DNA of 64,000 nt. Source: Gemmatimonadales bacterium. GTDB lineage: Bacteria; Gemmatimonadota; Gemmatimonadetes; Gemmatimonadales; GWC2-71-9. The stretch lies in the NCBI GenBank assembly GCA_036279355.1, contig DASUJH010000028.1, positions 133,353 through 197,352 of the forward strand. Direction: 5' to 3'. Shown one piece after another: positions 4,845 to 60,645 of this stretch (position 1 is its first letter; every line of letters begins with the position of its first letter). The translations under genes and the position numbers were made by a program. The notes below the pieces were generated by a model. It made no database searches. It saw nothing but the letters and a program-made list of their open reading frames with translations, and was not told where the DNA came from.

Positions 4845-5599
4845 CAGCTTCTCCCCGGGGTGGCGAAGTCCCGCTCGACCCGGCCGTCCTTCAGGTGAAT
4901 CTGGCGGCGGGCATAGTTGGCGATGTCGGCTTCGTGGGTCACGAGCACGATCGTCTGTCCGCCGCGATGCAGCTCCTCGAAGAGCGCGAGGATCTCGTAG
5001 CTGGTGCTGCTGTCGAGATTTCCGGTCGGCTCGTCGGCGAGCAGAATCGAGGGCTGATTCACCAGCGCGCGGGCGATGGCCACACGCTGGCGCTGGCCGC
5101 CCGACAGCTCGTTGGGCCGATGCTGCATCCGGTCGGCGAGCCCCACGCGCTCGAGGGCCGCGGTGGCCTGCTCGCGGCGTGCCCTCGCCCCGATGCCGGC
5201 GTAGACCAGCGGCAGCTCGACGTTGTGCAGCGCGGTGGCGCGCGGCAGCAGGTTGAAGGTCTGAAACACGAACCCGATCTCGCGGTTGCGGATGCGGGCG
5301 AGGGCGTCGTCGTCGAGCTCCGACACCCGGTGCCCGTTGAGCCAGTACTCGCCCGTGGTCGGCGTGTCGAGGCAGCCGATCACGTTCATCAGGGTCGATT
5401 TGCCCGAGCCGGAGGGGCCCATGATGGCGACGAACTCGTTGCGCCGGATCGTGAGGTCTGCCCCGCGGAGCGCGTGCACCACCTCGCTTCCCATGTCGTA
5501 GTCGCGCCGGAGGTTCCGGGTGACGATCACGGCGTCGGCGGGAACGTCGGCCGGCAGGCGCGCCATGCGCTCCGCGGTATTCTCGAGGGTCGCGGTCAT
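4844..5599 (-). CDS. ABC transporter ATP-binding protein (MacB/LolD-like)
   Basis: Walker [10 protein letters not shown], signature LSGGQRQR, Walker [13 protein letters not shown]-loop VTHE. Confidence 0.9.
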
Positions 5600-6930
5600 A
5601 GGTGTCTCCCCAGGACGCCTTCGATCTGGGCCTTGGCACGGAGATAGTCGAACCGGGCGCTCACCACGTCCACCTCGGCCTGGGTGAGCGTTTCCTGCGC
5701 GGTGAGCACGTCCACGATCGTGGCGACGCCAGCCCGGTACCGGTCCTGCTGCACCCGGAGCGCTTCGGTGCCCGCGGCAACGCTCGTTTGGGCGATGTCG
5801 ATCCGCTGGCGCGCGGCATCGAGCGCCGCCGCCTCGGCGATCACGACCGACTGCACGGCGCGGCGCGCGTCCTGGGCCTGCGCTTCCGCCAGGTCCACCT
5901 GGCTTTCCTGCTGCACGATCGTCTGCTCGCGCTCGAACCGGTTGAAGATCGGCCAGCTCAACTGAAGCGCAAGCTGGCGCTGGTTGATGAGGTCGTAGTC
6001 GCTCCGGCTCGATGCGTTGAAGTTGGCGCCGGCGCTGAGCGAGACCGTGGGCCAGTAATTGCCCTTGGCGCTCCGGAGCGCGGCCCGGCTGGCAGCAGCG
6101 AGCGCGGTGCTACTCTGCACCTGCGGCGCGGAATCGGCGGCAGCGCGCGCGAGCGCTCCGGCGTCGAGCGAATCCGCCATGCGATACAGGCTCGAGTCGT
6201 CCACCGCGGCCACCCGCCCGTCGGCGCCTACCTGTCGGGCCAGCGCCGCTTCGGCCGCGGCGAGCCCGCTCTGCGCGGTGAGCAGATCGGCGCGCGCGGT
6301 GCCAAGTGCCACCAGCGACTGCAGCGAATCGGCGCGGGTGGCGCTGCCCACGCGGAGCTTGGCGGCGCTCACCTTGAGTTGCTCCTCGGCCCGGCGGACG
6401 CTGGCCTCGCGCACCCGGACCAGTTGCCCGGCCGCGAGCGCGTCGAGGAACGCGCTCGTGGTGGTGAGGCGCTGCTGGTACCTCGCGTTCACGAGCCCGC
6501 TCTCCGCGGCCGCGGTCTCAGCTCGGGCCGCGGCGGAGTTGGCGCCACGCCGGAATCCGGTGAAGACATCCACGCTCGCGTTGAGTCCGAACGAAAGCGT
6601 CTGCGTCGTACTGCCACCCGGCAGGACAAGGCCAGTTGTGCGGTCGAGCACCGGCTGGCCCGAGTACAGCGTGGCACCGGAGCCGGAGGCGGTAACGCTC
6701 GGGAGGTACGCGCCGAACGCGGCCCGCCGCGCCGCGCCCGCATCCTCCAGTGCGCCCTGCGCCTGCACGACGGCCGGCTGGACTCGCTGCGCCCGGCGAA
6801 GGGCCTCATCCAGGGTGACCGACTGTGTCGCGGCGGGCGCGGCCGGCTGCTGGGCTGCGCCGATCGCGGGCTGGATCCAGAGGACGATGGCGAGCACCTG
6901 CGCCGTCTTGCGACGCCTCGCCGTCCTCAC
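5596..6930 (-). CDS. TolC-family outer membrane efflux protein
   Basis: 444 aa with a signal peptide, two repeated halves and long helical Ala/Gln-rich segments typical of the outer membrane factor family. GTGA overlap with the upstream gene and 4-nt overlap with the ATPase gene. Confidence 0.8.
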
Positions 6931-14736: not shown

Positions 14737-16470
14737 ATGACCGCGCGCGCGCCGCTCGATGCGCTTGCCGCGATCGGCGATGAAGCGGGGGTGCCCGGCA
14801 CCGCGGCGGAAGCGCGCGAGTTGGCCGGACGTCTGGGGGCGGGCCGATTCTACGTGGCCTGCGTCGGAGAGTTCAAGCGCGGCAAATCCACGCTCATCAA
14901 CTCCCTCACCGGCACCTCCGTCCTCCCAACCGGCATAGTGCCGGTCACCGCGGTGCCCACCATCCTGCGCCACGGGGACCTCGGTGCGCGCGTTCGGCTG
15001 CAGGATGGCTGGCATGCGGTGGACCCGGGAACGCTCGCCGAGTACGTCTCGGAGGCGTGCAACCCCGGGAATCGCCGTCATGTGCTCGCAGTCGAGGTCT
15101 TCGTCCCGAGCCCGCTGCTCGCACGCGGGCTCTGCCTCGTGGACACGCCTGGGCTGGGCTCGGCGGTCCAAGCCAACACCCGCGCCACGCGCGAATTTCT
15201 CCCGCACATCGACGCCGTCATCGCAGTCCTCGGCGCCGATCCACCGATCTCGGGCGAGGAGCTGAGTTTCATTGCGGAAGCGGCGGCGGGGGTCGAGATG
15301 CTGCTCGTCGTGCTCAACAAGGCCGACCGCATTCCGGCGGCGGACCGCGCGGAGGCTGCTGCGTTTACAGCGCGCCTGCTCTGCGAACGGCTCGGCCGCG
15401 CGCCGTCGCGGATCTTTGAGGTGAGTGCCCTCGCCGGCCAGCGTGATGGCGTGACGCATGGCGAATGGCTCGAGCTCTTGGCGGCGCTCGAGCAACTGCA
15501 CGGCCGGGCGGCGGAGGCCGTTCTGGCCACCGCCGAGCGACGCGGGCTCGCCCGGCTGGCCGCCCGACTTACGTGGGCACTCGACGAGCGGCGCCGGGCG
15601 CTGGTGGATCCGCTCGAAACAACCGAGGCCCGCGCGCGCGCCCTCGAGGCGCTCGGTGCGGAGACGGACCGCGCGTTGAGTGATCTCGCCCCGCTGCTCG
15701 CTGCCGAACTACAACGCCTGACGCGGCAGCTTGCACGCGAGCGGGAGCGCTTTATCAGCGACGTGACTCCGCGCGGCCGGATGCTGCTGGCGGAGCGCAC
15801 GAGGGCGTCCGGCGCCGCGTTCACCCGACTCGACGCGCTCGCGGCGGCCGAAGCCGTCGCGCGAGCCGTCCTCGAGCCCTGGCTCGAAGTGATGGAGCAT
15901 GAGGCGTCGGGCCAGTACACCGTCGCCACGCTTCGGTTCCGCGAGCTGGCGAACCAGCTGATGGCGCGATTGCTCGGGTCGGTGCCGGGCAGGAACGGCA
16001 CCTTCTCACTGCCCGAGACGGCCACCGATGGGTTCGCAACGCCGCGCCGATTCTACTTCACCGCGCTCATGCAGTACCACTACCGCGCGGCACCCGGCCG
16101 GCAGCTTGCGGAGCGGCTCATGCCGGCGGCGGTGCGCCGCCGCCGCGCCACCGCCGCCGCCAACTCCTATCTCAATCACCTGCTCGAGGTCAATGCCTCG
16201 CGCGTCGAGGGCGATCTCGCCGAGCGGATCGCGGAGAGTCGCCGGTGCCTGGAACGCGCCACGCGCGCCGAAATGCGGGAGGTGCGTCGCGCGAGCCTCG
16301 ATGCGCTCGCGCGTGCACGGGCCACGCAGGAAGCCGGGGAGCGGGCCGTGGCGCACGAGCTCGGGCAAATCGAGCGCTGGCTGGAGGAAATCCGGGCGCT
16401 CATGGACTCGGGCAATCAGGCGCCGTGGCCGGCGGGATCGGGCCACGCAGCCGCCGGCTCACTCGGGTGA
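14737..16470 (+). CDS. dynamin-family large GTPase (bacterial dynamin-like protein)
   Basis: G1 GEFKRGKST, G3 DTPGLGS, G4 LNKAD, followed by a long helical Ala/Arg/Leu-rich stalk. Confidence 0.75.
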   Translation: MTARAPLDALAAIGDEAGVPGTAAEARELAGRLGAGRFYVACVGEFKRGKSTLINSLTGTSVLPTGIVPVTAVPTILRHGDLGARVRLQDGWHAVDPGTLAEYVSEACNPGNRRHVLAVEVFVPSPLLARGLCLVDTPGLGSAVQANTRATREFLPHIDAVIAVLGADPPISGEELSFIAEAAAGVEMLLVVLNKADRIPAADRAEAAAFTARLLCERLGRAPSRIFEVSALAGQRDGVTHGEWLELLAALEQLHGRAAEAVLATAERRGLARLAARLTWALDERRRALVDPLETTEARARALEALGAETDRALSDLAPLLAAELQRLTRQLARERERFISDVTPRGRMLLAERTRASGAAFTRLDALAAAEAVARAVLEPWLEVMEHEASGQYTVATLRFRELANQLMARLLGSVPGRNGTFSLPETATDGFATPRRFYFTALMQYHYRAAPGRQLAERLMPAAVRRRRATAAANSYLNHLLEVNASRVEGDLAERIAESRRCLERATRAEMREVRRASLDALARARATQEAGERAVAHELGQIERWLEEIRALMDSGNQAPWPAGSGHAAAGSLG

Positions 16471-16908
16471 ACGCAGGCGCGCCGCGATCGCCTCGAGGCG
16501 GCTGACCATTTCGGCAAGTGCGGGGTCAATCTCGCGCGCCACGCCCGGATCGACCTCGCCGTAGCCGGCCAGGCCGCGGGATCCGGCGTCTTCCAGATCG
16601 ACGATCGCACGGCTCACGAGGGCCGCCACCCGCCGCTGCCGCGATTGGACGCGGGGCTCCAGGCCGAGCCGGTCCGCCAGCTCGCCGATGCGCTCACGGA
16701 GATCGAGCACGCGGTCGCGGACGGCGGTGCCGAATTGGGGGTTCAGGTCGCGCACGTCCTCGAGCAGCCGCGCCGGGCGAGCCGGCAGGTCGGCAAGGCG
16801 CTCGATCTCGCCGAGGGCTTCCTCCAGTTGCTCGAGGAAGACGGCGAGGTGTCGCCGCTGCGACTCGTTGAGCCGGACCGTATTCGCCGGGCGGCGCGAT
16901 CGGCTCAC
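16459..16908 (-). CDS. hypothetical helical protein
   Basis: 149 aa with a heptad-like charged/leucine pattern and no recognisable motif. Its 3' end overlaps the dynamin gene's 3' end by 12 nt (convergent). Confidence 0.4.
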   Translation of the reverse strand: MSRSRRPANTVRLNESQRRHLAVFLEQLEEALGEIERLADLPARPARLLEDVRDLNPQFGTAVRDRVLDLRERIGELADRLGLEPRVQSRQRRVAALVSRAIVDLEDAGSRGLAGYGEVDPGVAREIDPALAEMVSRLEAIAARLRSPE

Positions 16909-16929
16909 GCTACGCCGCGCACCGACACC

Positions 16930-19826: not shown

Positions 19827-21356
19827 TCAGGGGCCGGCGGAAAGTGGCGTGATTTCGATGCGGCGATTGAGCGCACGACCCACGGCCGAGGTATCGGATG
19901 TCACCGGCGCGGTGGCGCCGTAGAACTTCGACACAAGGCGCTGGGCGCGAACGCCCTTGCCGATGAAATAGGAGCGCACTGCCTCGACCCGGAGGTTGGC
20001 GAGGCGGCGGCTGTCGACGTCCGAGCGGGTGTTCGCGGTGTAGGCGCCGATCTCCACGCGGAGCGCCGGATCGGCATCGAGCATCGCCGCCGCGGAGTCG
20101 AGCGCCGGCTGCGCGGTGGTTCTGAGGCGCGCGCTGCCGAGGGCGAACGCATCGCCATGCAGGACGACCGGATGCGCCTGGACGGGTCGGGGCGCCGCCG
20201 GCGGCGGGGCCGCGGCCGCTGGCGGCGCGGCCGAGGCCGTGGGCGGGCGCGCCGGCGCCTCTCGCGCCGCTCCCTCCGATGGCGACGCTTCGCCCTTGGC
20301 ACAGCCCGTGGCGTTCACCGATTCGCCCGACGGAGTGCTGGGGCACTGGTCGATACCGTCGAGCACTCCGTCGCCATCCGAGTCGCTCGGGCAGCCGAGG
20401 GCATCCACCGTGGCGCCCTTTGGCGTGTCGGGGCAGCGGTCGAGGCCATCCGCCACCCCGTCCTTGTCGCTGTCCACGGGACAGCCGCTCGCGTCCACGA
20501 CCGCGTGGGCCGGCGTGTTGGGGCACTTGTCGACGCCGTCCACCACGCCGTCATGATCGCTGTCGAGCGGACATCCGGTGGCATTGACCCTGACCCCGGC
20601 CGGCGTGTCGGGGCACCGGTCCACTCCATCGGCGACGCCGTCCTTGTCGGTATCGATGGGGCAGCCGGTCGGATCGACCTGGATGCCGGCCGGCGTCGCG
20701 GGGCAACGGTCATCGGTGTCGAGGACACCGTCGCCGTCGGAATCAACCAGGGCCTTGCTGCCGAGCATCAGGCTCGCGCCCAGGTTCACGCCAAAGTTGG
20801 TGAGCTTGCGATCGCCGCTGCTGTTCCGGTTGAGCACCCCTTCGCCCCGGACGAGCACGGTCGGGACGATCGCGACGCGGAAGCCGAGGCCGCCGAGGAG
20901 CGACGTCGCGGTACCGCAGGGCCCCGCGCCCGGAATGGCCACGTCCGGGCAGTTGCCGCCGTATGTGGTGCCGCCGACCCCGAACTTGAGATAGGCCGAG
21001 TTGTTGATGCCGATCGGCACGTTGTAGAGCAACGCCCCGTTGAAGGTCTTCACCGTGACGCGCTGTGAGCCGCTCTCGGTTTTCGGTTTGGCGAACGCCC
21101 CCTCCGCCTCGACTTCGAACCGGGCGGGTAGCCAGATCCCGATTCGGCCGAGGGCACCGAAGCCGGTCTTGAGATCGGTGGCGTTGTCGAACGTCATGAG
21201 GTCGCCCGCGGCGCCGACCTCGACGATATACTTGCGCGGGGCCTGCTGGCTGAGAGCCCCGGGAGCGAACGTCGCGAGCAAAAGAAGCGGCGCCAGGGCC
21301 GTGCACGTCGCACGGCCCCGGCGCCGGCCCGGGGTCCTGCCCCTGAGGTACGTCAT
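19827..21356 (-). CDS. OmpA-family outer membrane protein with thrombospondin type-3 (Ca-binding) repeats
   Basis: Signal peptide, N-terminal beta-barrel-like region, five 30-aa DxDxDGVxDxxDxCPxTPxG repeats, a Pro/Ala linker and a C-terminal OmpA peptidoglycan-binding domain (NRRIEI). Confidence 0.85.
   Translation of the reverse strand: MTYLRGRTPGRRRGRATCTALAPLLLLATFAPGALSQQAPRKYIVEVGAAGDLMTFDNATDLKTGFGALGRIGIWLPARFEVEAEGAFAKPKTESGSQRVTVKTFNGALLYNVPIGINNSAYLKFGVGGTTYGGNCPDVAIPGAGPCGTATSLLGGLGFRVAIVPTVLVRGEGVLNRNSSGDRKLTNFGVNLGASLMLGSKALVDSDGDGVLDTDDRCPATPAGIQVDPTGCPIDTDKDGVADGVDRCPDTPAGVRVNATGCPLDSDHDGVVDGVDKCPNTPAHAVVDASGCPVDSDKDGVADGLDRCPDTPKGATVDALGCPSDSDGDGVLDGIDQCPSTPSGESVNATGCAKGEASPSEGAAREAPARPPTASAAPPAAAAPPPAAPRPVQAHPVVLHGDAFALGSARLRTTAQPALDSAAAMLDADPALRVEIGAYTANTRSDVDSRRLANLRVEAVRSYFIGKGVRAQRLVSKFYGATAPVTSDTSAVGRALNRRIEITPLSAGP
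20295..20744 (-). repeat. five tandem 90-nt (30-codon) TSP3-type repeats inside the ompA-like gene
   Basis: Protein positions about 205-354: DSDGDGVLDTDDRCPATPAGIQVDPTGCPI / DTDKDGVADGVDRCPDTPAGVRVNATGCPL / DSDHDGVVDGVDKCPNTPAHAVVDASGCPV / DSDKDGVADGLDRCPDTPKGATVDALGCPS / DSDGDGVLDGIDQCPSTPSGESVNATGCAK. Confidence 0.8.
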
Positions 21357-21409: not shown

Positions 21410-21438
21410 TTGGCATCCCCCAGGGGCGCCGCTACGAT
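21410..21438 (+). promoter_or_regulatory. candidate sigma-70 promoter for the SelW-like gene
   Basis: TTGGCA (21410-21415), a 17-nt spacer, then TACGAT (21433-21438), about 40 nt upstream of the ATG at 21478. Confidence 0.35.
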
Positions 21439-21477
21439 TCTGTCCCAAGCACCGCCCAGAGCAAGGAGCGCCGACCG

Positions 21478-21711
21478 ATGCAGGTCGTCATCGAATATTG
21501 CGTCGTCTGAAACTATCAATCGCGAGCCGCCGGTCTGGCGGCTGAAATCGAGCGGGAGTTTCCCGACAGCGAGATCCGGATGGTGCCCTCGTCCGGCGGC
21601 CGGTTCGAGATCGCCCTCGACGGGCATTCGGTGTTCTCGAAGAAGGCCGCCGGCCGCCACGCGGCACCGGGCGAGGTCGTGGGGCTGATCCGCAAGCACA
21701 AATCGGCTTAA
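21478..21711 (+). CDS. SelW/Rdx-family thioredoxin-fold selenoprotein (77 codons; in-frame UGA at 21508-21510 read as selenocysteine)
   Basis: AAGGAG RBS 9 nt upstream of the ATG. Encodes MQVVIEYCVV-U-NYQSRAAGLAAEIEREFPDSEIRMVPSSGGRFEIALDGHSVFSKKAAGRHAAPGEVVGLIRKHKSA, ending at TAA 21709-21711. The CxxU redox motif and the downstream GG.FEI..DG...SKK..GR.P pattern fit the Rdx family. Not in the ORF track because the TGA splits it. Confidence 0.75.
21525..21543 (+). promoter_or_regulatory. SECIS-like stem-loop downstream of the UGA
   Basis: Perfect 7-bp stem AGCCGCC / GGCGGCT with apical loop GGUCU, starting 14 nt after the UGA. The loop resembles the GGUC apical loop of the E. coli fdhF SECIS (recalled from memory). 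Confidence 0.55.
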
Positions 21712-21731: not shown

Positions 21732-22811
21732 ATGCGGATCGCCATCTCGACCGGCGGCGGCGACGCGCCGGGGCTCAATGCAGTCATTCGTGCCGTCGCG
21801 CTCTCGGCCCACCGTCGCGGCTGGCACTGCTACGGGATCCTCCGCGGCTACGACGGACTCCTCGCCTTCGACGGCGTGGTCCCGCTCGGCCCCGAGCAGG
21901 TCCGTGGCATCACCCACCTGGGCGGCACCATTCTCGGCACCAGCAATCGAGGCAATCCCTTTCACTTCACAGTCCGGGACTCCGAGGGCCGCGAGACCGA
22001 GGTCGACCGGTCGGACGACCTCGTGGCCGCGTTCCAGGCGAGCGGCTTCGACGCGCTGGTCTCGATCGGGGGCGACGGCAGCCTCGCCATCGCGTACGAG
22101 CTCTGGAAGAAAGGCGTGCCGGTGGTCTGCGTGCCCAAGACCATCGACAACGACGTGAGCGGCACCCAGCGCACCTTCGGCTACGACACCGCGGTGAGCA
22201 CCGCCACCGAGGCCATCGATCGGCTGCACTCGACCGCGGAGAGCCACGAGCGGGTGATGGTGGTGGAAGTAATGGGCCGCTACGCCGGCTGGATCGCGCT
22301 CACGAGCGGCCTCTCGGGGAGCGCGGACGTGATCCTCCTGCCCGAGATTCCGTTCGATATCGAAAAGGTCTGCGCCAAGATCCGGAGCCGTGAGGCCGCC
22401 GGCCGCCGATTCAGCATCGTGGTGGTGGCCGAAGGCGCGCGGCCGGCGGGCGGCGAGATCGTGATGGTCGAGCGGCGCGGGCCCGGCACCGTGGATCGGC
22501 TGGGTGGGATCGCGGGACAGGTGGCGCGCGCCATCCATGAGCGCACCCGCAAGGAGGTTCGCACGCTGGTGCTCGGCCACTTGCAGCGCGGTGGCTCGCC
22601 CACGACCTACGACCGCCTGCTCGCGCTCCGATTCGGGTGCGCCGCCGTGCGCACCATCGCCGACCGCTGCTTCGGCGTCATGGTCGGCACGAGCGGAACC
22701 ACGATCAGCCGGGTGCCGCTCGCCGACGTCGTGGGCCGGCCGAAGAATGTGCCGCTCGATTCCGATATCGTGGCTACCGCGCGCGATCTCGGCATCAGCC
22801 TCGGCGACTGA
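21732..22811 (+). CDS. pfkA: 6-phosphofructokinase (PfkA family)
   Basis: MRIAISTGGGDAPGLNAVIR, IGGDGS, PKTIDND and MGRYAGW motifs. Confidence 0.9.
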   Translation: MRIAISTGGGDAPGLNAVIRAVALSAHRRGWHCYGILRGYDGLLAFDGVVPLGPEQVRGITHLGGTILGTSNRGNPFHFTVRDSEGRETEVDRSDDLVAAFQASGFDALVSIGGDGSLAIAYELWKKGVPVVCVPKTIDNDVSGTQRTFGYDTAVSTATEAIDRLHSTAESHERVMVVEVMGRYAGWIALTSGLSGSADVILLPEIPFDIEKVCAKIRSREAAGRRFSIVVVAEGARPAGGEIVMVERRGPGTVDRLGGIAGQVARAIHERTRKEVRTLVLGHLQRGGSPTTYDRLLALRFGCAAVRTIADRCFGVMVGTSGTTISRVPLADVVGRPKNVPLDSDIVATARDLGISLGD

Positions 22812-28080: not shown

Positions 28081-29961
28081 CTACTGCTTGACCGCCGGTG
28101 ACTTGAGCGCGAACACGGTCAGCACGCCGCCCTGGTTGGAGAACTGACCGGCATCGCCGAACGCGCCCAGCGCGCCCAGGCCCGCCGTCGGGTCCTCGGC
28201 CCCAATGCCGGCCGCCACACCGATGCCCGCCCAGCCGCCGATGCCCGAAAGCACCGCGACGTACTGCTGGCCATCGGGACCCTGGTACGTCATCGGGTTG
28301 CCGATGATGCCGGACGGCGTCTTGTACTCCCAGAGGAGCTTGCCGCTCTTCTGATCGACCGCCTTGAGCCAGCCGTCCATGGTGCCGTAGAAGGCGAGAC
28401 CGCCGGCGGTGGTCAGCACGCCACCGTACGCCGCCAGGTTTTCCTTGTCTTCCCAGACCACCTTGCCTTGCATCGGATCCCACGCGATGAACCGACCGCG
28501 GTTACCGCCCGGGCCCGGGTACATCCGCACGATCGCGCCGACGTACGGCTGGCCGGCCGAGTACTTCACCTCGACGCCTTCATAATCCATGCAGATGTTG
28601 TTCGTCGGGACGTAGAAGTACCCCGTCAGCGGGGAGTAGGACGACGGCTGCTGGTCCTTGAAGCCGATCGCCGCGGGGCAGATGCCCTCGGTGTTGTGCT
28701 TCGAGGTCGTGCCGTACTTCGGGTCCTTGTGCGGAATGCCGGTCGAAAGGTCCACACCGGTTGCCCAGTTCACCGGGCCGTAGGGCTTGGCCACGATCAG
28801 CTTGCCGTTGGTGCGATCGATCGTGTAACCGAATCCGTTCCGGTCGAAGTGCGCGAGCAGCTTCTTCCCGTTCCGGTCGAACAGTACGTTCTCGTTGACG
28901 CCGTCATAGTCCCACTCGTCGTGCGGCGTCATCTGGTAGGCCCATTCCACCGTTCCGTCATCGGGGTGGCGCGCGAAGATGGTCATCGACCATTTGTTGT
29001 CGCCCGGCCGCTGATCGGGATTCCAGGTGCCCGGGTTGCCGGTGCTGATGTACACCAGGTCGAGCTGGGGGTCGTAGGAGTACCAGCCCCACGTGGTGCC
29101 GCCGCCGCGCTTCCACTCATCGCTGCCGTTCCAGGTGCTCACACCCAGGTCCTTGCCCTTGTGCGAGGCATAGTTCGCGTTGCCGACGCCATTCTGAATA
29201 CCGACCTCGGCATCGGGGCCGGTGCTGTACATGGTCCAGAGATGCTTGCCGCTGTTGGCGTCGAACGCCGAGACGCGGCCGCGGACGCCGAACTCACCGC
29301 CCGAGATGCCGGCGATCACGATTTCCTTGCCCGACTTGGTCTTGATGTAAATCGGGGCATTGGTCATCGTGGCGCCCTCCTTGTACCCCGTGGCTTCCGG
29401 CCCCGAGGGCGACGAAGCCGGGTGCTTCACCTTCCACAGCTCCTTGCCGGTCTTGGCGTCGAGCGCCAGGAGCTCACCCTCGAGCAGCTCGATGTAAAGC
29501 TTGCCGCTCGGGTTGTACGCCAGACCGCGGTTCACCAGGTCGCAGCAGGCGATTGGAATCGCGTCGGGCGACTGGTTGGGCACGTACTTCCAGATCTGCG
29601 GCGCGCCGGGCTTCGACAGGTCGAGCGCGTACACGATGTTGGGGAAGCTCGTCTGCACGTACATCACGTTCCCGACGACGAGCGGGTTGCCCTCGTGACC
29701 GCGGAGCGTGCCGGTCGAGAACGACCAGACGGGCCGAAGCTGGGCGATGTTTGACGTGGTGATCTGATTGAGGGGGCTGAAGCGGGTAAGGGCGTAGTCG
29801 CGCCCGGTCATCCACCACTCCCCCTTGGGAGCGTTCATTGTCCAGGCCCCGCCCGACCAGGACCCCTGCGGGACGTTCTGCGCGGCCACCGGGCTCGTTC
29901 CGAATGCCAGGAGGCACGCCATCAACCCGCCGACCGGCAGATAAGCCATCGATCGTTTCAT
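28081..29961 (-). CDS. xoxF: PQQ-dependent methanol/alcohol dehydrogenase, XoxF (lanthanide) type, paralog 1
   Basis: ORF 28081..30177 trimmed to the ATG at 29961 (MKRSMAYLPVGGLMACLLAFGTSPVAAQ signal; GAGG RBS). Vicinal disulfide IACCDLVNRG. The WDYDG motif carries the extra Asp that distinguishes XoxF from Ca-type MxaF (WDYAG). No mxaI small subunit nearby. Confidence 0.9.
   Translation of the reverse strand: MKRSMAYLPVGGLMACLLAFGTSPVAAQNVPQGSWSGGAWTMNAPKGEWWMTGRDYALTRFSPLNQITTSNIAQLRPVWSFSTGTLRGHEGNPLVVGNVMYVQTSFPNIVYALDLSKPGAPQIWKYVPNQSPDAIPIACCDLVNRGLAYNPSGKLYIELLEGELLALDAKTGKELWKVKHPASSPSGPEATGYKEGATMTNAPIYIKTKSGKEIVIAGISGGEFGVRGRVSAFDANSGKHLWTMYSTGPDAEVGIQNGVGNANYASHKGKDLGVSTWNGSDEWKRGGGTTWGWYSYDPQLDLVYISTGNPGTWNPDQRPGDNKWSMTIFARHPDDGTVEWAYQMTPHDEWDYDGVNENVLFDRNGKKLLAHFDRNGFGYTIDRTNGKLIVAKPYGPVNWATGVDLSTGIPHKDPKYGTTSKHNTEGICPAAIGFKDQQPSSYSPLTGYFYVPTNNICMDYEGVEVKYSAGQPYVGAIVRMYPGPGGNRGRFIAWDPMQGKVVWEDKENLAAYGGVLTTAGGLAFYGTMDGWLKAVDQKSGKLLWEYKTPSGIIGNPMTYQGPDGQQYVAVLSGIGGWAGIGVAAGIGAEDPTAGLGALGAFGDAGQFSNQGGVLTVFALKSPAVKQ
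28154..28254. repeat. 101-nt block perfectly identical to 32058..32158 (xoxF paralog pair)
   Basis: Direct comparison of the two 3' coding regions. The surrounding sequence matches at most positions. Confidence 0.85.
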
Positions 29962-30297
29962 TGCTGTTGACCTCACATGTGACGGTATCGTGGACGGTAT
30001 GCGGCTGCCAAACCGGCTGATTGCGGGCTGGCGGCCGGAAGGGTGCATCCCGTCGATAGGCGGTCCGCCTGGCGGGGTGCAAATACGTGGGGCGGGCGGG
30101 CTGCGGGGCAGCAAAGAGTGCCGGAGGGGGTGGGGGGTACACCCCATCCAGCCAACTATATGGGCACGCGCAAACATAGGCCTGCGTCGCTTTCTGACCT
30201 GAACTATGGGCCCTAATGTCCGACGCGCCGCACCACGGGACCGTGATCTGCATCACATCGCTCGGTCAATCGCGCGCTACCGACCCCCGAACGCGAC

Positions 30298-32005: not shown

Positions 32006-33820
32006 TTAGAGCGAGAATACCGTAAGCACGCCGCCCTGGTTGGTGAACTGACCGGCGTCGCCGAACGCGCCCAGCGCGCCCAGGCCCGCCGTCGGGTCCT
32101 CGGCCCCAATGCCGGCCGCCACACCGATGCCCGCCCAGCCGCCGATGCCCGAAAGCACGGCCACGTACTGCTTCTTGTCTGGGCCAAGATAGGTCATCGG
32201 GTTGCCGATGATGCCGGACGGCGTCTTGAACTGCCACAGCAGCTTGCCGGTCTTCTGGTCGACCGCCTTGAGCCAGCCTTCCATGGTGCCGTAGAAGGCG
32301 AGACCGCCGGCGGTGGTCAGCACGCCGCCGTACGCGGCCAGGTTCTCCTTGTCTTCCCAGACCACCTTGCCCGCCATCGGATCCCACGCAATGAACCGGC
32401 CGCGATTGCCACCCGGGCCGGGGAACATGCGCACGATCGCGCCGACGTACGGCTGGCCGGCCGAGTACTTCACCTCGACGCCTTCATAGTCCATGCAGAT
32501 GTTGTTCGCCGGGACGTAGAAGTAGCCGGTGAGCGGCGAGTACGCGGAGGGCTGCTGGTCCTTGAAGCCGATCGCCGCGGGGCAGATGCCCTCGGTGTTG
32601 TGCTTCGAGGTCGTGCCGTACTTCGGGTCCTTCTTCGGGATGCCGGTGGAGAGATCCACGCCCGTGGTCCAGTTGACCGGACCGAAGGGCTTGGCCACGA
32701 TCAGCTTGCCGTTGGTGCGATCGATCGTGTAGCCGATGCCGTTACGATCGAAGTGCGCCAGGAGCTTCTGACCGCCGTGCTCGAAGAGCACGTTCTCGTT
32801 GACGCCGTCATAGTCCCACTCATCGTGCGGCGTCATCTGGTAGGCCCAGACGACCTTGCCCGTCTCCGGCTTGCGCGCGAAGATGGTCATCGACCACTTG
32901 TTGTCGCCCGGCCGCTGATCGGGATTCCAGGTGCCCGGGTTGCCGGTGCTGACATACAGGTTGTCGAGCTCGGGGTCGTAGGAGTACCAGCCCCACGTGG
33001 TGCCGCCGCCGTGCTTCCACTCGTCGCCCTGCCAAGTCGAGACGCCGAGGTCCTTGCCTTTGTGCGAGGCGTAGTTCGCATTGGCGACGCCGTTCTCGAT
33101 GCCGACTTCGTCGTCCGGACCCGTGCTGTACATGGTCCAGAGATGTTTGCCGCTGTTGGCGTCGAACGCCGAGACGCGGCCGCGGACGCCGAACTCACCG
33201 CCCGAGATGCCGGTGATCACGATGTCCTTGATCACGATCGGGGCGACCGTCATGGTGGCGCCCTGCTTGTAGCCGGTCGCCTCGGGACCCGCGTTCGAGT
33301 GATCGGGGTGCTTCACCTTCCACAGCTCCTTGCCGGTCTTGGCGTCGAGCGCCAGGAGCTCACCCTCGAGCAGGTTGATGTAGAGCTTGCCGCTCGGATG
33401 GTAGGCCAGACCGCGGTTCACCAGGTCGCAGCAGGCGATTGGGATCGCGTCGGGCGACTGGTTGGGCACGTACTTCCAGATCTGCGGCGCGCCGGGCTTC
33501 GACAGATCGAGCGCGTACACGATGTTGGGGAAGCTCGTGTGCACGTACATCACGTTCCCGACGACGAGCGGGTTGCCCTCGTGACCGCGCAACGTGCCGG
33601 TCGACATGGTCCACGCCGCCTTCAGGTCCTTCACGTTCGCCGTCGTGATCTGCTTGAGCGGGCTGTACCGCTGCAAGCTGTAATCACGCCCGGTGATCTG
33701 CCAGTCGCCCTCGGGCGCGTTGCGGGTCCACTCCCCGCCGCGTGCCTGGGCGTTGGCGACGGCCGCGAACGCGAGGCTCGCAGCGACGCCGGACAACACC
33801 TGCCGGGTAATGCGGTTCAT
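32006..33820 (-). CDS. xoxF: PQQ-dependent methanol/alcohol dehydrogenase, XoxF (lanthanide) type, paralog 2
   Basis: ORF 32006..34141 trimmed to the ATG at 33820 (MNRITRQVLSGVAASLAFAAVANAQ signal; GAGG RBS). Has the same IACCDLVNRG and WDYDG motifs as paralog 1. Confidence 0.9.
   Translation of the reverse strand: MNRITRQVLSGVAASLAFAAVANAQARGGEWTRNAPEGDWQITGRDYSLQRYSPLKQITTANVKDLKAAWTMSTGTLRGHEGNPLVVGNVMYVHTSFPNIVYALDLSKPGAPQIWKYVPNQSPDAIPIACCDLVNRGLAYHPSGKLYINLLEGELLALDAKTGKELWKVKHPDHSNAGPEATGYKQGATMTVAPIVIKDIVITGISGGEFGVRGRVSAFDANSGKHLWTMYSTGPDDEVGIENGVANANYASHKGKDLGVSTWQGDEWKHGGGTTWGWYSYDPELDNLYVSTGNPGTWNPDQRPGDNKWSMTIFARKPETGKVVWAYQMTPHDEWDYDGVNENVLFEHGGQKLLAHFDRNGIGYTIDRTNGKLIVAKPFGPVNWTTGVDLSTGIPKKDPKYGTTSKHNTEGICPAAIGFKDQQPSAYSPLTGYFYVPANNICMDYEGVEVKYSAGQPYVGAIVRMFPGPGGNRGRFIAWDPMAGKVVWEDKENLAAYGGVLTTAGGLAFYGTMEGWLKAVDQKTGKLLWQFKTPSGIIGNPMTYLGPDKKQYVAVLSGIGGWAGIGVAAGIGAEDPTAGLGALGAFGDAGQFTNQGGVLTVFSL
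32058..32158. repeat. 101-nt block perfectly identical to 28154..28254
   Basis: See the partner feature at 28154..28254. Confidence 0.85.
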
Positions 33821-33863
33821 AACTGACCTCAGGATGAAGGGTGATTCTCCTGCTGTACAGCAC

Positions 33864-33955
33864 CTACGTGGTGTTGCGTTGCCCTGCGTGGTGGTGCGCT
33901 GTGGGTGGTGCACTGCGTGAAGCGTGCTGCGTGAAGCGTGCTGCGGTGGAGCGCT
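33864..33955. repeat. array of about six imperfect 14-15-nt direct repeats (CTGCGTGGTGGTGCG-like) in the xoxF2 leader
   Basis: Units: ctacgtggtgttgcg.., ctgcgtggtggtgcg, ctgtgggtggtgca, ctgcgtgaagcgtg (x2, exact, 33913-33940), ctgcggtggagcgct. Lies 45-135 nt upstream of the xoxF2 ATG. Confidence 0.7.
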
Positions 33956-34299
33956 CTGCCGCCTCGACTCGGTGCGGCGCGGGTACCCCGGAAACCCGCG
34001 CCCACCTGCCGGGGCCCTTACGACCGAGCAGCCGGAGTTCTCCGCTCGATCACCGGCCCCGCCGCGCGGCCTCGGGGGCCGGGCCACAAACTCGGGTACG
34101 CGGGCATGGAACCGGTTGGATGCATGCCTCGCTGGAGGCATGACATTGATGTACGCCTAAAAGGGCCGTTGCGCCAGACCGGCCGCACGGGAAACCCGCG
34201 ATCACACCTTTGGTCAAACCGCCGCCCACGTCTGACGATGAGGGGAAAGACGACCTCGGGTACTCCGGCTTCTACATGTTTATGCGGACTTGGGGCTCC

Positions 34300-50805: not shown

Positions 50806-51771
50806 TCAGCCGCACGACGCGGCCAGCACTTCGGGGTTGAGCCGTCCCGCATGAAACGTCCGCCCGCTCTCCGTGCTGGTGAGCCAGACCTCGGCCGGGC
50901 TGAAGAGCAGCGGATCGATTTTGTAGAAGTCGCCCTCGTATCGCTGGAAGATGTCGTAGAACGGCACGCCGTAGTCGTGCGAAGCCGAAGCCGGAACCTT
51001 GGGCACGAGCTCGGCCAGCTCGTCGTCGCCCGCGTGGACGGTGTAGCGCGCCTGGCCGCCATAAAGAATGCAGTCGTTGGTCCGGCCGATGGCCCGGAGA
51101 TCGTTCTTCGCCACCGGTGCGATCGGCGCGGTGCCGATGCCGCTCACGATCTTTCTCACGTCGAAGCCGAGCGTTTCCATCTTGTGGAGCCCGGTCTCCA
51201 GAATGCGGGCCGAAATCTGCACGCCGCCCGCAAGGCTCGCCGTCGGCGCGATGACGAAGGTGAGCTCGGGCGGCTGCATGCGCGCCTTGCCGGCCACCCA
51301 GTTTGCTACTTCGTCGGTCGGCAGCGTGCGGCCCTCGAGCACGAGCACACCGCGCTCCGCCGTCTCGGCGTAGCCCAGCTTTGCGAACAGCTCCTTCTCG
51401 ACGCGTGCCTGCGCTCTGAGCGGCCCCGAGCCCATGGCGAAGTACTTTCCCACCGAGATGGCCCACCCCGCGTACTGCGACGCCATGCACGACACCGCGG
51501 GATGGTCGGTCCAGACCGTAACGCCCGCCCACGTCTCGCCGCCGATCTGGAGCGGACTGTAGGTGACGCTGCCGAGCCCGCCCATGCAGATCTCGGAGAG
51601 CGCAAGGCCGGCATCGAGGCCGCCCTCGGTCTCGACGCCCGCGTCGATGACACGGGCGCCGCTCGCAAGCGCGTGCACCCGCACCCGGAGCAGCCCCGCG
51701 TGGTCCTCCATCCCATCGGCAATTTCCGCAGCGAGCGCGTTGAGGTTCGGCGTCAGCGGTTCGGTGTCCAT
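50806..51771 (-). CDS. mch: methenyltetrahydromethanopterin cyclohydrolase
   Basis: Real part of ORF 50806..51984, ATG at 51771, 321 aa. SCMASQYAGW, FAMGSGP and LYGG patterns. Position follows fhcC. Confidence 0.9.
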   Translation of the reverse strand: MDTEPLTPNLNALAAEIADGMEDHAGLLRVRVHALASGARVIDAGVETEGGLDAGLALSEICMGGLGSVTYSPLQIGGETWAGVTVWTDHPAVSCMASQYAGWAISVGKYFAMGSGPLRAQARVEKELFAKLGYAETAERGVLVLEGRTLPTDEVANWVAGKARMQPPELTFVIAPTASLAGGVQISARILETGLHKMETLGFDVRKIVSGIGTAPIAPVAKNDLRAIGRTNDCILYGGQARYTVHAGDDELAELVPKVPASASHDYGVPFYDIFQRYEGDFYKIDPLLFSPAEVWLTSTESGRTFHAGRLNPEVLAASCG

Positions 51772-52580
51772 GCCAGAATCTCTCCAGCGCCCAGCTCGGC
51801 GAGGTCGCCGCTGTAGCGTCGATAGAGGCCAGAGGAATGCTCGCGCGGCGGTGCCATCCGGTGCCGCTCGGCGAGATGCTTGAGGAGGAATGCCACGTAC
51901 TCGGGACGATAGGTGCAGGCGTACGCGTACGTGGCCGGGGGTGTGATGTTGCCGAGTGCGACGATGCTGCCGCGCCTGGACCACCGCCCGGGATTCGGAC
52001 CCACTGCGCCGAACACGACCACGGTGCCCGCGATGACGGCGCGCCCGGCACTCTCACCGACGTCGCCCGCAACCGCGACCAGGCCGCGGCGCATGGCCGC
52101 GCCGGCCTCCGGGCCGGCCGAGCCGCGCACGATGACGACGCCGCCGGTCATGCCGCGCTTGGCACCTAGGGGCGCGCCGCCCGCGCGCGGCCCGACGTTT
52201 CCGCGCACGTCGAGCACGCCCCCGGCCAACTCCAGTCCGGCGCCCCAGCCGGCGTCGCCGTGCACCTCGATCCGGCCGCTCCGCATCCGCGCGCCGGTCG
52301 CGCGCCCCGCCGCGCCTTCGATCACGACCTCGGCGCCATCGAGGCCGGTGCCGAGTCCTTCGATCTGGGTGAGGTCGCCGGCAAAGCGGATGCGGTGCGA
52401 ACGTCCGCCGCGGACCTCGAAAAACTCACCCAGCGGAACGAGCCCGACCGCGGCGACGCGTACGCCCTGGCGCGCGATCGCGCTTTCGTCGAGCTCGGCC
52501 CAGAGGTCGAGCGCCAGCGCGGACGCGTCCACTCGGCGGTCGAGCGCGCGCTTGAGCGTGAGGACGACTTCGTCGCTCAT
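51753..52580 (-). CDS. fhcC: formyltransferase/hydrolase complex subunit C (formylmethanofuran dehydrogenase subunit C homolog)
   Basis: 275 aa with the repetitive G-rich beta-helix pattern (GDAGWGAGLELAGGVLDVRGNVGPRAGG...GGVVIVRGSAGPEAGAAMRRGLVAVAGDVG). Confidence 0.85.
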   Translation of the reverse strand: MSDEVVLTLKRALDRRVDASALALDLWAELDESAIARQGVRVAAVGLVPLGEFFEVRGGRSHRIRFAGDLTQIEGLGTGLDGAEVVIEGAAGRATGARMRSGRIEVHGDAGWGAGLELAGGVLDVRGNVGPRAGGAPLGAKRGMTGGVVIVRGSAGPEAGAAMRRGLVAVAGDVGESAGRAVIAGTVVVFGAVGPNPGRWSRRGSIVALGNITPPATYAYACTYRPEYVAFLLKHLAERHRMAPPREHSSGLYRRYSGDLAELGAGEILAWTPNR

Positions 52581-59784: not shown

Positions 59785-60297
59785 TCAGCCCTCGGCGCCG
59801 CTCGCGAACGGATGCCGCGCGCTCTTGTACTTGGAGAGCACCTCGTCCACCGACGGCTTGCCGGCGAGCGCGCGCTGGATCGACTCCTTCACCGCCTGAT
59901 AGTTGTAGTCGTAGATCTTCTTGTCGTCGTCGGCCTGCCAGTGGATGAACACGCCGACCAGGATGCAGTAGTCGTTGGCCTTGTCCTTCGGAATGACGCC
60001 CGAATCGACGCTGTCCATCACCGCCCGGGCGACCGCGGCCTGCGCCGGCCCGAACATCTGCACCGCCTGCTTGGCGCCCTTGATGGTGACCTTGTTGAAG
60101 AGCACCGTGTCGGGCTTGCAGGGGAGGTTCGGGGTCACCACGGCGAGCAGGGTGGTGAAGCCATCGGTGTTGCGCGAGAGGGCCTGGGTGAAGGCGGCGC
60201 CCAGGGGCCCCGACTTCGACCCGATCATCAGGTCGATGTGGGCGACTTCATTGCCCCCGCCGACGAGGGACTCGCCAATGAAGAAATCCGCGGCCAT
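59785..60297 (-). CDS. fae: formaldehyde-activating enzyme
   Basis: ORF 59785..60564 trimmed to the ATG at 60297 (GGAGG 5 nt upstream), 170 aa. [47 protein letters not shown] and HPFA motifs. Confidence 0.9.
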
Positions 60298-60334
60298 GGG
60301 TGCCTCCATTTTCGGTTCGGTAAACATGGACAGA

Positions 60335-60340
60335 ATTTTA
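60335..60340 (-). promoter_or_regulatory. candidate -10 element (TAAAAT) for fae
   Basis: An AT-only hexamer conspicuous in GC-rich DNA, about 38 nt upstream of the fae ATG. No convincing -35. Confidence 0.3.
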
Positions 60341-60645
60341 CGGAGCATGATCGAATCCGCGCGCTGGAGTTCGGGTGCAGGAGCAGCGCGGCGGCCGGAC
60401 GGGGCCACGCAGTCCCGCCAAGGCGGGTAGCTCGGGCGTTGATTGATCCACGCGACGAAAGCGGCCCTAGTATGGGACTGGCTTGGAAGCCTGTCAAGTT
60501 TGCCGTCAGCACGTGACCGAGGCTGCGTACATGAAACTGGATTGTTCAATACGCGGTGCTCCAAGGCCCGTACAAACGCCGAAGTGGCAATCTCGCGGGG
60601 AATCTACCGGACTCCCGTGCCTCCATTCTCACGAGAGGGACCACC

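Follow-up and report, generated by a model that had tools for sequence, protein, structure and literature searches.

Introduction

Does the apparently empty stretch between an ompA-like gene and the phosphofructokinase gene pfk of a Gemmatimonadales bacterium hold a gene in which UGA is read as selenocysteine (Sec)? The question concerns a 64-kb stretch of DNA, referred to here as the window, in which 375 nt separate the start of the ompA-like gene (21356, minus strand) from the start of pfk (21732). The original prediction was that this gap contains no credible conventional open reading frame, but that its plus strand encodes a small protein of the SelW/SelT/Rdx family with an in-frame UGA in a CxxU motif and a hairpin shortly after it that recalls the selenocysteine insertion element (SECIS) of Escherichia coli fdhF.

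Bacterial SelW-like selenoproteins with a CxxU motif have been catalogued since 2005 (PMC1088965; PMC1794560). With 48 genes, they outnumbered every other selenoprotein family in the Sargasso Sea data (PMC1088965), and they are also listed in surveys of bacterial genomes (PMC1794560). Profile HMMs for the family are kept by NCBI. The surveys of selenoproteins and selenium utilisation that we found do not mention Gemmatimonadota as a host, and our literature search returned no paper recording or excluding Sec decoding in this phylum. We followed the predicted gene from its reading frame to its protein family, its conservation in related genomes, its RNA structure and its genomic surroundings.

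Results

An open frame interrupted by a single UGA

Starting from the ATG at 21478, the plus strand reads ten codons (MQVVIEYCVV) and then a TGA, after which the same frame stays open for 66 sense codons, encoding NYQSRAAGLAAEIEREFPDSEIRMVPSSGGRFEIALDGHSVFSKKAAGRHAAPGEVVGLIRKHKSA, before it ends in TAA at 21709-21711 (Table 1). When we re-checked the sequence, the ATG, TGA and TAA all lay where the original prediction had put them, as did the two signals proposed upstream of the gene. These are a Shine-Dalgarno-like AAGGAG and a promoter-like element, the latter being the sole sigma-70-like match between 21300 and 21800, where 0.1 matches would be expected. An alignment of orthologs begins at the same methionine as the window gene. 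The gap likewise proved to hold no credible ORF, as had been claimed. In a mechanical ORF list the correct frame is represented only by a 43-aa ORF (21580-21711), and the other entries are spurious ORFs of the kind that arise in high-GC DNA.

Table 1. Coordinates of the SelW-like gene, its signals and its neighbours in the window
Feature	Position	Strand	Remarks
OmpA/TSP3/β-barrel protein gene	19827-21356	-	Upstream neighbour
Promoter-like element TTGGCA-17 nt-TACGAT	21410..21438	+	Consensus match only, 9/12 positions
Shine-Dalgarno-like AAGGAG	21463..21468	+	9 nt 5' of ATG
Predicted SelW-like / Rdx-family selenoprotein gene	21478..21711	+	77 residues + stop, MQVVIEYCVV-U-NYQSRAAGLAAEIE…KHKSA
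Cys of CxxU redox motif, codon 8, TGC	21499..21501	+	TGC/TGT in 47/47 sequences; opposite first CxxC Cys of 2FA8
Predicted selenocysteine codon, in-frame TGA, codon 11	21508..21510	+	TGA in 47/47; opposite second CxxC Cys in solved homologs
Bacterial SECIS-type hairpin, 7-bp stem AGCCGCC/GGCGGCT	21525..21543	+	Loop GGUCU 21532-21536; codons R16-A22
Phosphofructokinase gene (PF00365)	21732..22811	+	Starts 20 nt after SelW-like stop

We scanned the rest of the window for in-frame TGA codons of the CxxU or UxxC type that are followed by sequence of coding-like composition and found none besides the one in this gene, downstream of which GC3 is 0.80 and GC2 is 0.50. Three other same-frame TGA junctions, at 16468, 39933 and 58777, were considered as further selenoproteins and rejected because they look like ordinary gene ends, with a new start following both 39933 and 58777. 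The first of them (16468-16470, plus strand) ends a dynamin-family gene and is followed by at least 40 open codons of high GC3 in the same frame. This open frame most likely reflects a minus-strand gene that overlaps it (16459-16929), not read-through.

The encoded protein belongs to the Rdx family

For profile searches we used the 77-residue protein with U replaced by C. The Pfam Rdx profile PF10262 scored 74.9 bits on residues 2-73 (cutoff 22.6; E = 5.9e-21) and was covered from position 1 to position 74 of 74, a full-length match that spans the TGA position. TIGR02174 (CXXU_selWTH) scored 64.2 bits against a cutoff of 34.2, and NF041051, which describes the SelT/SelW/SelH family of (seleno)proteins, scored 90.7 bits against a cutoff of 88. 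With all three profiles above their cutoffs, the assignment to the SelW/SelT/Rdx family that had been made from the redox motif and the residue pattern after it stands.

Sequence searches of the PDB matched 2FA8 (E = 5e-10), 2OBK, 2OKA, 2P0G, 3DEX, 2OJL and human MIEN1 (2LJK, E = 1.9e-7). In the three alignments that we inspected (2FA8, 2OBK and 2LJK), the second cysteine of the CxxC motif lies opposite the UGA. The segment IRYCTQCNW aligns with IEYCVV-U-NY, which places C8-V-V-U11 of the window protein against CTQC in 2FA8 and 2OBK and against CEPC in MIEN1.

The fold was assessed on P0001, the nearest homolog in the databases, with 71% identity to the window protein, the same synteny and an artefactual Trp at the Sec site. 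Its AlphaFold2 model (pLDDT 95, pTM 0.84) has the order β1(2-8)-α1(14-27)-β2-β3-β4-α2, with the redox motif between β1 and α1. Foldseek superimposed this model on 2FA8 with a TM score of 0.90 and an rmsd of 1.0 Å, followed by MIEN1, mouse SelW (2NPB) and thioredoxins. Judged from the model of this 71%-identical homolog, the window protein is predicted to have the thioredoxin-like Rdx fold.

The UGA is conserved in related loci

A scan of species-representative genomes yielded 46 related loci, which together with the window make 47 sequences. Thirty-one of the loci come from Gemmatimonadota MAGs, at 51-63% identity, and the closest relatives place the window's own source in this phylum. The remaining 15 are from Chloroflexota, Acidobacteriota (Thermoanaerobaculia), Myxococcota or other 'Deltaproteobacteria', Planctomycetota, Fibrobacterota, Krumholzibacteriia and a 'Candidatus Rariloculus' chromosome; the set spans at least seven phyla, with protein identities of 41-63%. 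At the position of codon 11 every one of the 47 sequences has TGA, with a Cys codon three codons earlier and an open, conserved frame afterwards, a figure that is uninformative on how frequent Cys forms are because one of several bait peptides, AAGLAAEI, overlaps the hairpin and so enriched the set for SECIS-bearing, Sec-type forms.

We then compared the two sides of the TGA in a gap-free, 72-codon alignment of the 32 Gemmatimonadota sequences. For codon positions 1, 2 and 3, the mean pairwise diversity was 0.20, 0.16 and 0.44 upstream of the TGA and 0.29, 0.24 and 0.52 in codons 23-72. Because this periodicity is present on both sides, both are translated and under purifying selection in this frame. 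A TGA and SECIS pair could not have been kept under such selection in 31 Gemmatimonadota species unless the codon were read through.

Read-through need not mean selenocysteine, and the competing explanation that fares best is that UGA is decoded as Trp, Gly or Cys, by near-cognate read-through, a suppressor tRNA or a reassigned code, with the full-length protein still being made. Database homologs described as full-length do carry W (P0001-P0003 and P0006) or G (P0005) at the site, and the Sec machinery was not found in the window. However, the W and G look like artefacts of translation, because the DNA behind P0001 (locus L050) has a plain TGA at 5433-5435, followed by GCCGCC-GGTCT-GGCGGC, and does not yield the database protein under code 11; genetic code 4 or 25 was apparently applied to the contigs behind these entries. 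Nor is the code itself reassigned, because genuine genes in the window end in TGA more often than in any other stop codon, with Pfam domains finishing just ahead of it. Moreover, the site is that of the redox cysteine of CxxC in homologs, where Trp or Gly would destroy the motif, and read-through alone would not select a covarying hairpin in a fixed register with a GGUCU loop like that of fdhF. Decoding as an amino acid other than selenocysteine is in our view very unlikely.

The machinery itself was sought in the window and in the related loci. ARAGORN found no tRNA genes in the 64-kb window; in the 46 loci its only finds were tRNA-Pro and tRNA-Arg. Neither six-frame tblastn with E. coli SelA, SelB and SelD nor Pfam scans of 30 large ORFs detected selA, selB or selD in the window, and the same tblastn queries returned a single gene from the 46 loci, a selD in the Chloroflexia MAG locus L036. 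This selD (5896-6225, plus strand) follows the SelW-like gene at a distance of 2.7 kb and is 42% identical to the E. coli protein over 78 residues. It has an in-frame TGA (5941-5943) at the position of E. coli Cys17 (SSCAG-U-ASK against SHGAGCGCK) and a 7-bp hairpin about 30 nt past it, which makes it the second selenoprotein gene of L036. Near residue 75 the tblastn match shifts frame, perhaps because of an assembly frameshift. A Sec-type selD beside a SelW-like gene lends indirect support to the use of selenocysteine in genomes that carry the latter.

Were the TGA instead a true stop, the locus would be either the decayed pseudogene of a Cys-type Rdx gene or the source of the 43-aa ORF only. 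Public annotation looks much like this. The identical locus is public only as a 2.5-kb Logan contig (SRR25158533, with an identical pfk), in which just the 43-aa C-terminal fragment is called, so that the expectation that standard gene callers would miss the gene was borne out; database entries P0004 and P0007-P0013 are similar C-terminal fragments that start after the TGA. These fragments, however, come from annotation pipelines that halt at UGA, and a 43-aa product without β1, the redox motif and α1 could form no Rdx fold. A dead gene or a short one would also not account for a TGA held at the identical codon in proteins only 41-63% identical, for purifying selection on both of its sides, or for a Shine-Dalgarno sequence and ATG conserved at the N-terminus. 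We consider termination at this codon exceedingly unlikely.

A covarying hairpin follows the UGA

The hairpin that had been proposed 14 nt past the UGA, with a perfect 7-bp stem and a GGUCU loop, is present in the window and is the minimum-free-energy element of its region. It is also the only hairpin in the 64 kb that combines a stem of at least 7 bp with a GGTCT loop, against 0.16 expected from shuffled sequences. Single-sequence folding energies were no better than those of dinucleotide shuffles (z = -0.76 and +0.36), and such z-scores are uninformative, as expected in DNA of 70% G+C. The significance of the hairpin therefore rests on comparative data and not on thermodynamics.

Counted from the T of the TGA, the two arms of the helix fall at columns 18-24 and 30-36 in each of the 47 sequences, and the TGA lies 24 nt before the loop throughout. 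Standard pairs fill 95.1% of the cells in this register; sliding the 3' arm by 1-3 nt lowers the figure to 16-58%. Compensatory changes occur at four of the seven pairs, and none of 500 column shuffles reached the observed values on any measure. RNAalifold recovered only five of the seven pairs, the Chloroflexi variants having a bulged register. Two Chloroflexi sequences, L032 and L034, fit only if the register is shifted and a C is bulged out of the stem. In place of GGUCU the loop reads AGUUU in L003, L032 and L034 and AGGCU in L024; the G at loop position 2 is invariant.

The hairpin lies wholly inside the coding sequence, and its peptide is highly conserved across the set and covered by one of the bait peptides, all of which would fit a structure that is a by-product of selection on RAAGLAAE in helix α1 and has no function as RNA. 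The synonymous sites contradict this reading. The changes in pairs 18-36, 21-33 and 24-30 are synonymous because these pairs join codon third positions, and the wobble-wobble pairs 18-36 and 21-33 change in a compensatory manner through GC, AU, CG and UA types (GC, AU, GU and CG at 18-36; CG, UG, GC and UA at 21-33). Third positions of codons 18-21 are almost invariant, with a diversity of 0-0.06 compared with about 0.5 elsewhere. In 30 of 32 sequences the loop glycine is encoded by GGT, a codon that is rare in this 70% G+C genome and accounts for 61 of the 487 glycine codons counted across seven window genes. The AGLAA peptide is, furthermore, not required by the fold, because α1 reads RAGWMAQE or RAAWLAQE in Cys-type homologs where it reads RAAGLAAE here. 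An origin of the hairpin in amino acid conservation is scarcely credible on this evidence. These patterns show that the conserved hairpin is selected at the RNA level.

A scan of the whole window with Rfam at the gathering threshold returned no SECIS family, and at E ≤ 10 the segment 21440-21640 gave only chance-level matches to the unrelated families mir-1908 and STnc70. The SECIS models in Rfam describe mainly eukaryotic elements, and this miss consequently does not weigh against a bacterial SECIS.

Comparison with the E. coli fdhF element

The SECIS of E. coli fdhF is the reference SelB-binding element. We took it from NC_000913.3, where the UGA is codon 140, and set it beside the window sequence codon by codon: fdhF reads UGA CAC GGC CCA UCG GUU GCA GGU CUG CAC, and the window reads UGA AAC UAU CAA UCG CGA GCC GCC GGU CUG GCG. 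Both hairpins lie in coding sequence just past the UGA, and both contain GGUCUG in the same reading frame, where it encodes Gly-Leu, so the likeness of the loops that had first drawn attention to this site extends to their phase. The two differ in spacing and in the stem. The fdhF loop comes 21 nt after the U of UGA, whereas the loop here comes 24 nt after it, one codon further. The stem in the window is a perfect 7-bp G+C helix (-13.2 kcal/mol) that closes a 5-nt loop with a C-G pair, whereas the upper stem of fdhF is short and closed by A-U around GGUC.

Linkage to pfk and the surrounding genes

In 18 of the 31 Gemmatimonadota loci (L001-L004, L008, L010, L012-L015, L017, L022-L024, L027, L029, L030 and L033), as well as in L050, pfk directly follows the SelW-like gene. 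The closest relatives keep the order DUF4015 - OmpA/TSP3 - SelW-like - PFK - prolyl oligopeptidase. We found no terminator-like site between the SelW-like gene and pfk in the window. The 20-nt spacing, the lack of such a site and the recurrent linkage suggest that the two genes are probably co-transcribed. Any functional link between SelW and pfk is speculative.

Other parts of the window have features of their own. A fluoride riboswitch (RF01734, 13373-13438, plus strand) scores 51 bits against a gathering score of 34 and lies directly upstream of, and overlapping, the open frame of a Na+/H+-exchanger-family gene (PF00999; 13426-14685, plus strand), which by this family assignment is not a fluoride exporter of the crcB or eriC-F type. 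On the minus strand, two paralogous PQQ-dependent dehydrogenases (28081-30252 and 32006-34156) are followed by a tetrahydromethanopterin-linked C1 module (36596-60603). The module includes DUF6513/pterin-binding, CitG-like, Mch cyclohydrolase (50806-52053) and Amidohydro_3 (possibly Fhc-like) genes, together with ATP-grasp, DUF1464, Mpt_N (MtdB-like) and Fae (59785-60603). It suggests methylotroph-style formaldehyde oxidation in a Gemmatimonadota genome.

Discussion

We put the probability that 21478-21711 on the plus strand is a genuine, functional SelW-like gene encoding selenocysteine at roughly 92%. Set against what is established for the family, the window gene is a textbook bacterial SelW-like selenoprotein in which every testable defining feature is present. 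Like its bacterial relatives, it encodes a protein of about 75-80 residues with an N-terminal β1-CxxU-α1 arrangement, it has a UGA codon for Sec with a SECIS hairpin immediately downstream in the coding region, and it has a guanosine in a small apical loop. We found no feature in which it departs from this family; in the window the gene sits directly upstream of pfk.

More distant members of the fold differ in instructive ways. The Cys-type Rdx proteins of known structure (Atu0228, 2FA8; 2OBK, 2OKA, 2P0G, 3DEX and 2OJL) share the fold, with TM scores of 0.86-0.91 and an rmsd of about 1 Å to the P0001 model, and have the redox motif at the same position. Where the window protein has CxxU they carry CxxC, their deposited sequences run to about 100-108 residues and, compared at the protein level, they have not kept the hairpin-encoded peptide RAAGLAAE. 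Eukaryotic SelW, SelT, SelH and MIEN1 also have the thioredoxin-like Rdx fold and a CxxU or CxxC motif, but the eukaryotic SECIS is a kink-turn structure in the 3'UTR, and the proteins are longer and carry extra elements.

How the gene would be expressed can be proposed by analogy with the established bacterial Sec pathway (PMC1088965). The hairpin would act as a bacterial SECIS element, binding SelB·GTP·Sec-tRNA(Sec) and delivering it to a ribosome with the UGA in its A site. Selenocysteine would then be inserted at codon 11 in place of termination, giving a CxxU site, Cys8-Val-Val-Sec11, at the N-terminus of α1. This pair would be expected to alternate between a selenenylsulfide and the reduced selenol and thiol, with the protein serving as a thiol-dependent oxidoreductase.

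The novelty lies only in the host lineage, in the conserved selW-pfk arrangement and in putting public mis-annotations right; the gene adds a lineage and a selW-pfk pair to the family and no new mechanism. A bolder reading is that soil Gemmatimonadota, which are largely aerobic, keep the whole Sec apparatus with a SelW-like protein as its major or sole client, and that the selW-pfk order reflects a functional link. We think this improbable as a whole. If it were true, the link could be, for example, that phosphofructokinase or glycolytic flux is under selenium-dependent redox control.

The gene is real and is mis-annotated in public data, where it is reduced to a 43-aa fragment or given Trp or Gly at the Sec site. 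Its presence would imply that its Gemmatimonadota host decodes UGA as selenocysteine, with consequences for gene calling, for metabolic reconstruction and for estimates of selenium dependence in soil bacteria.
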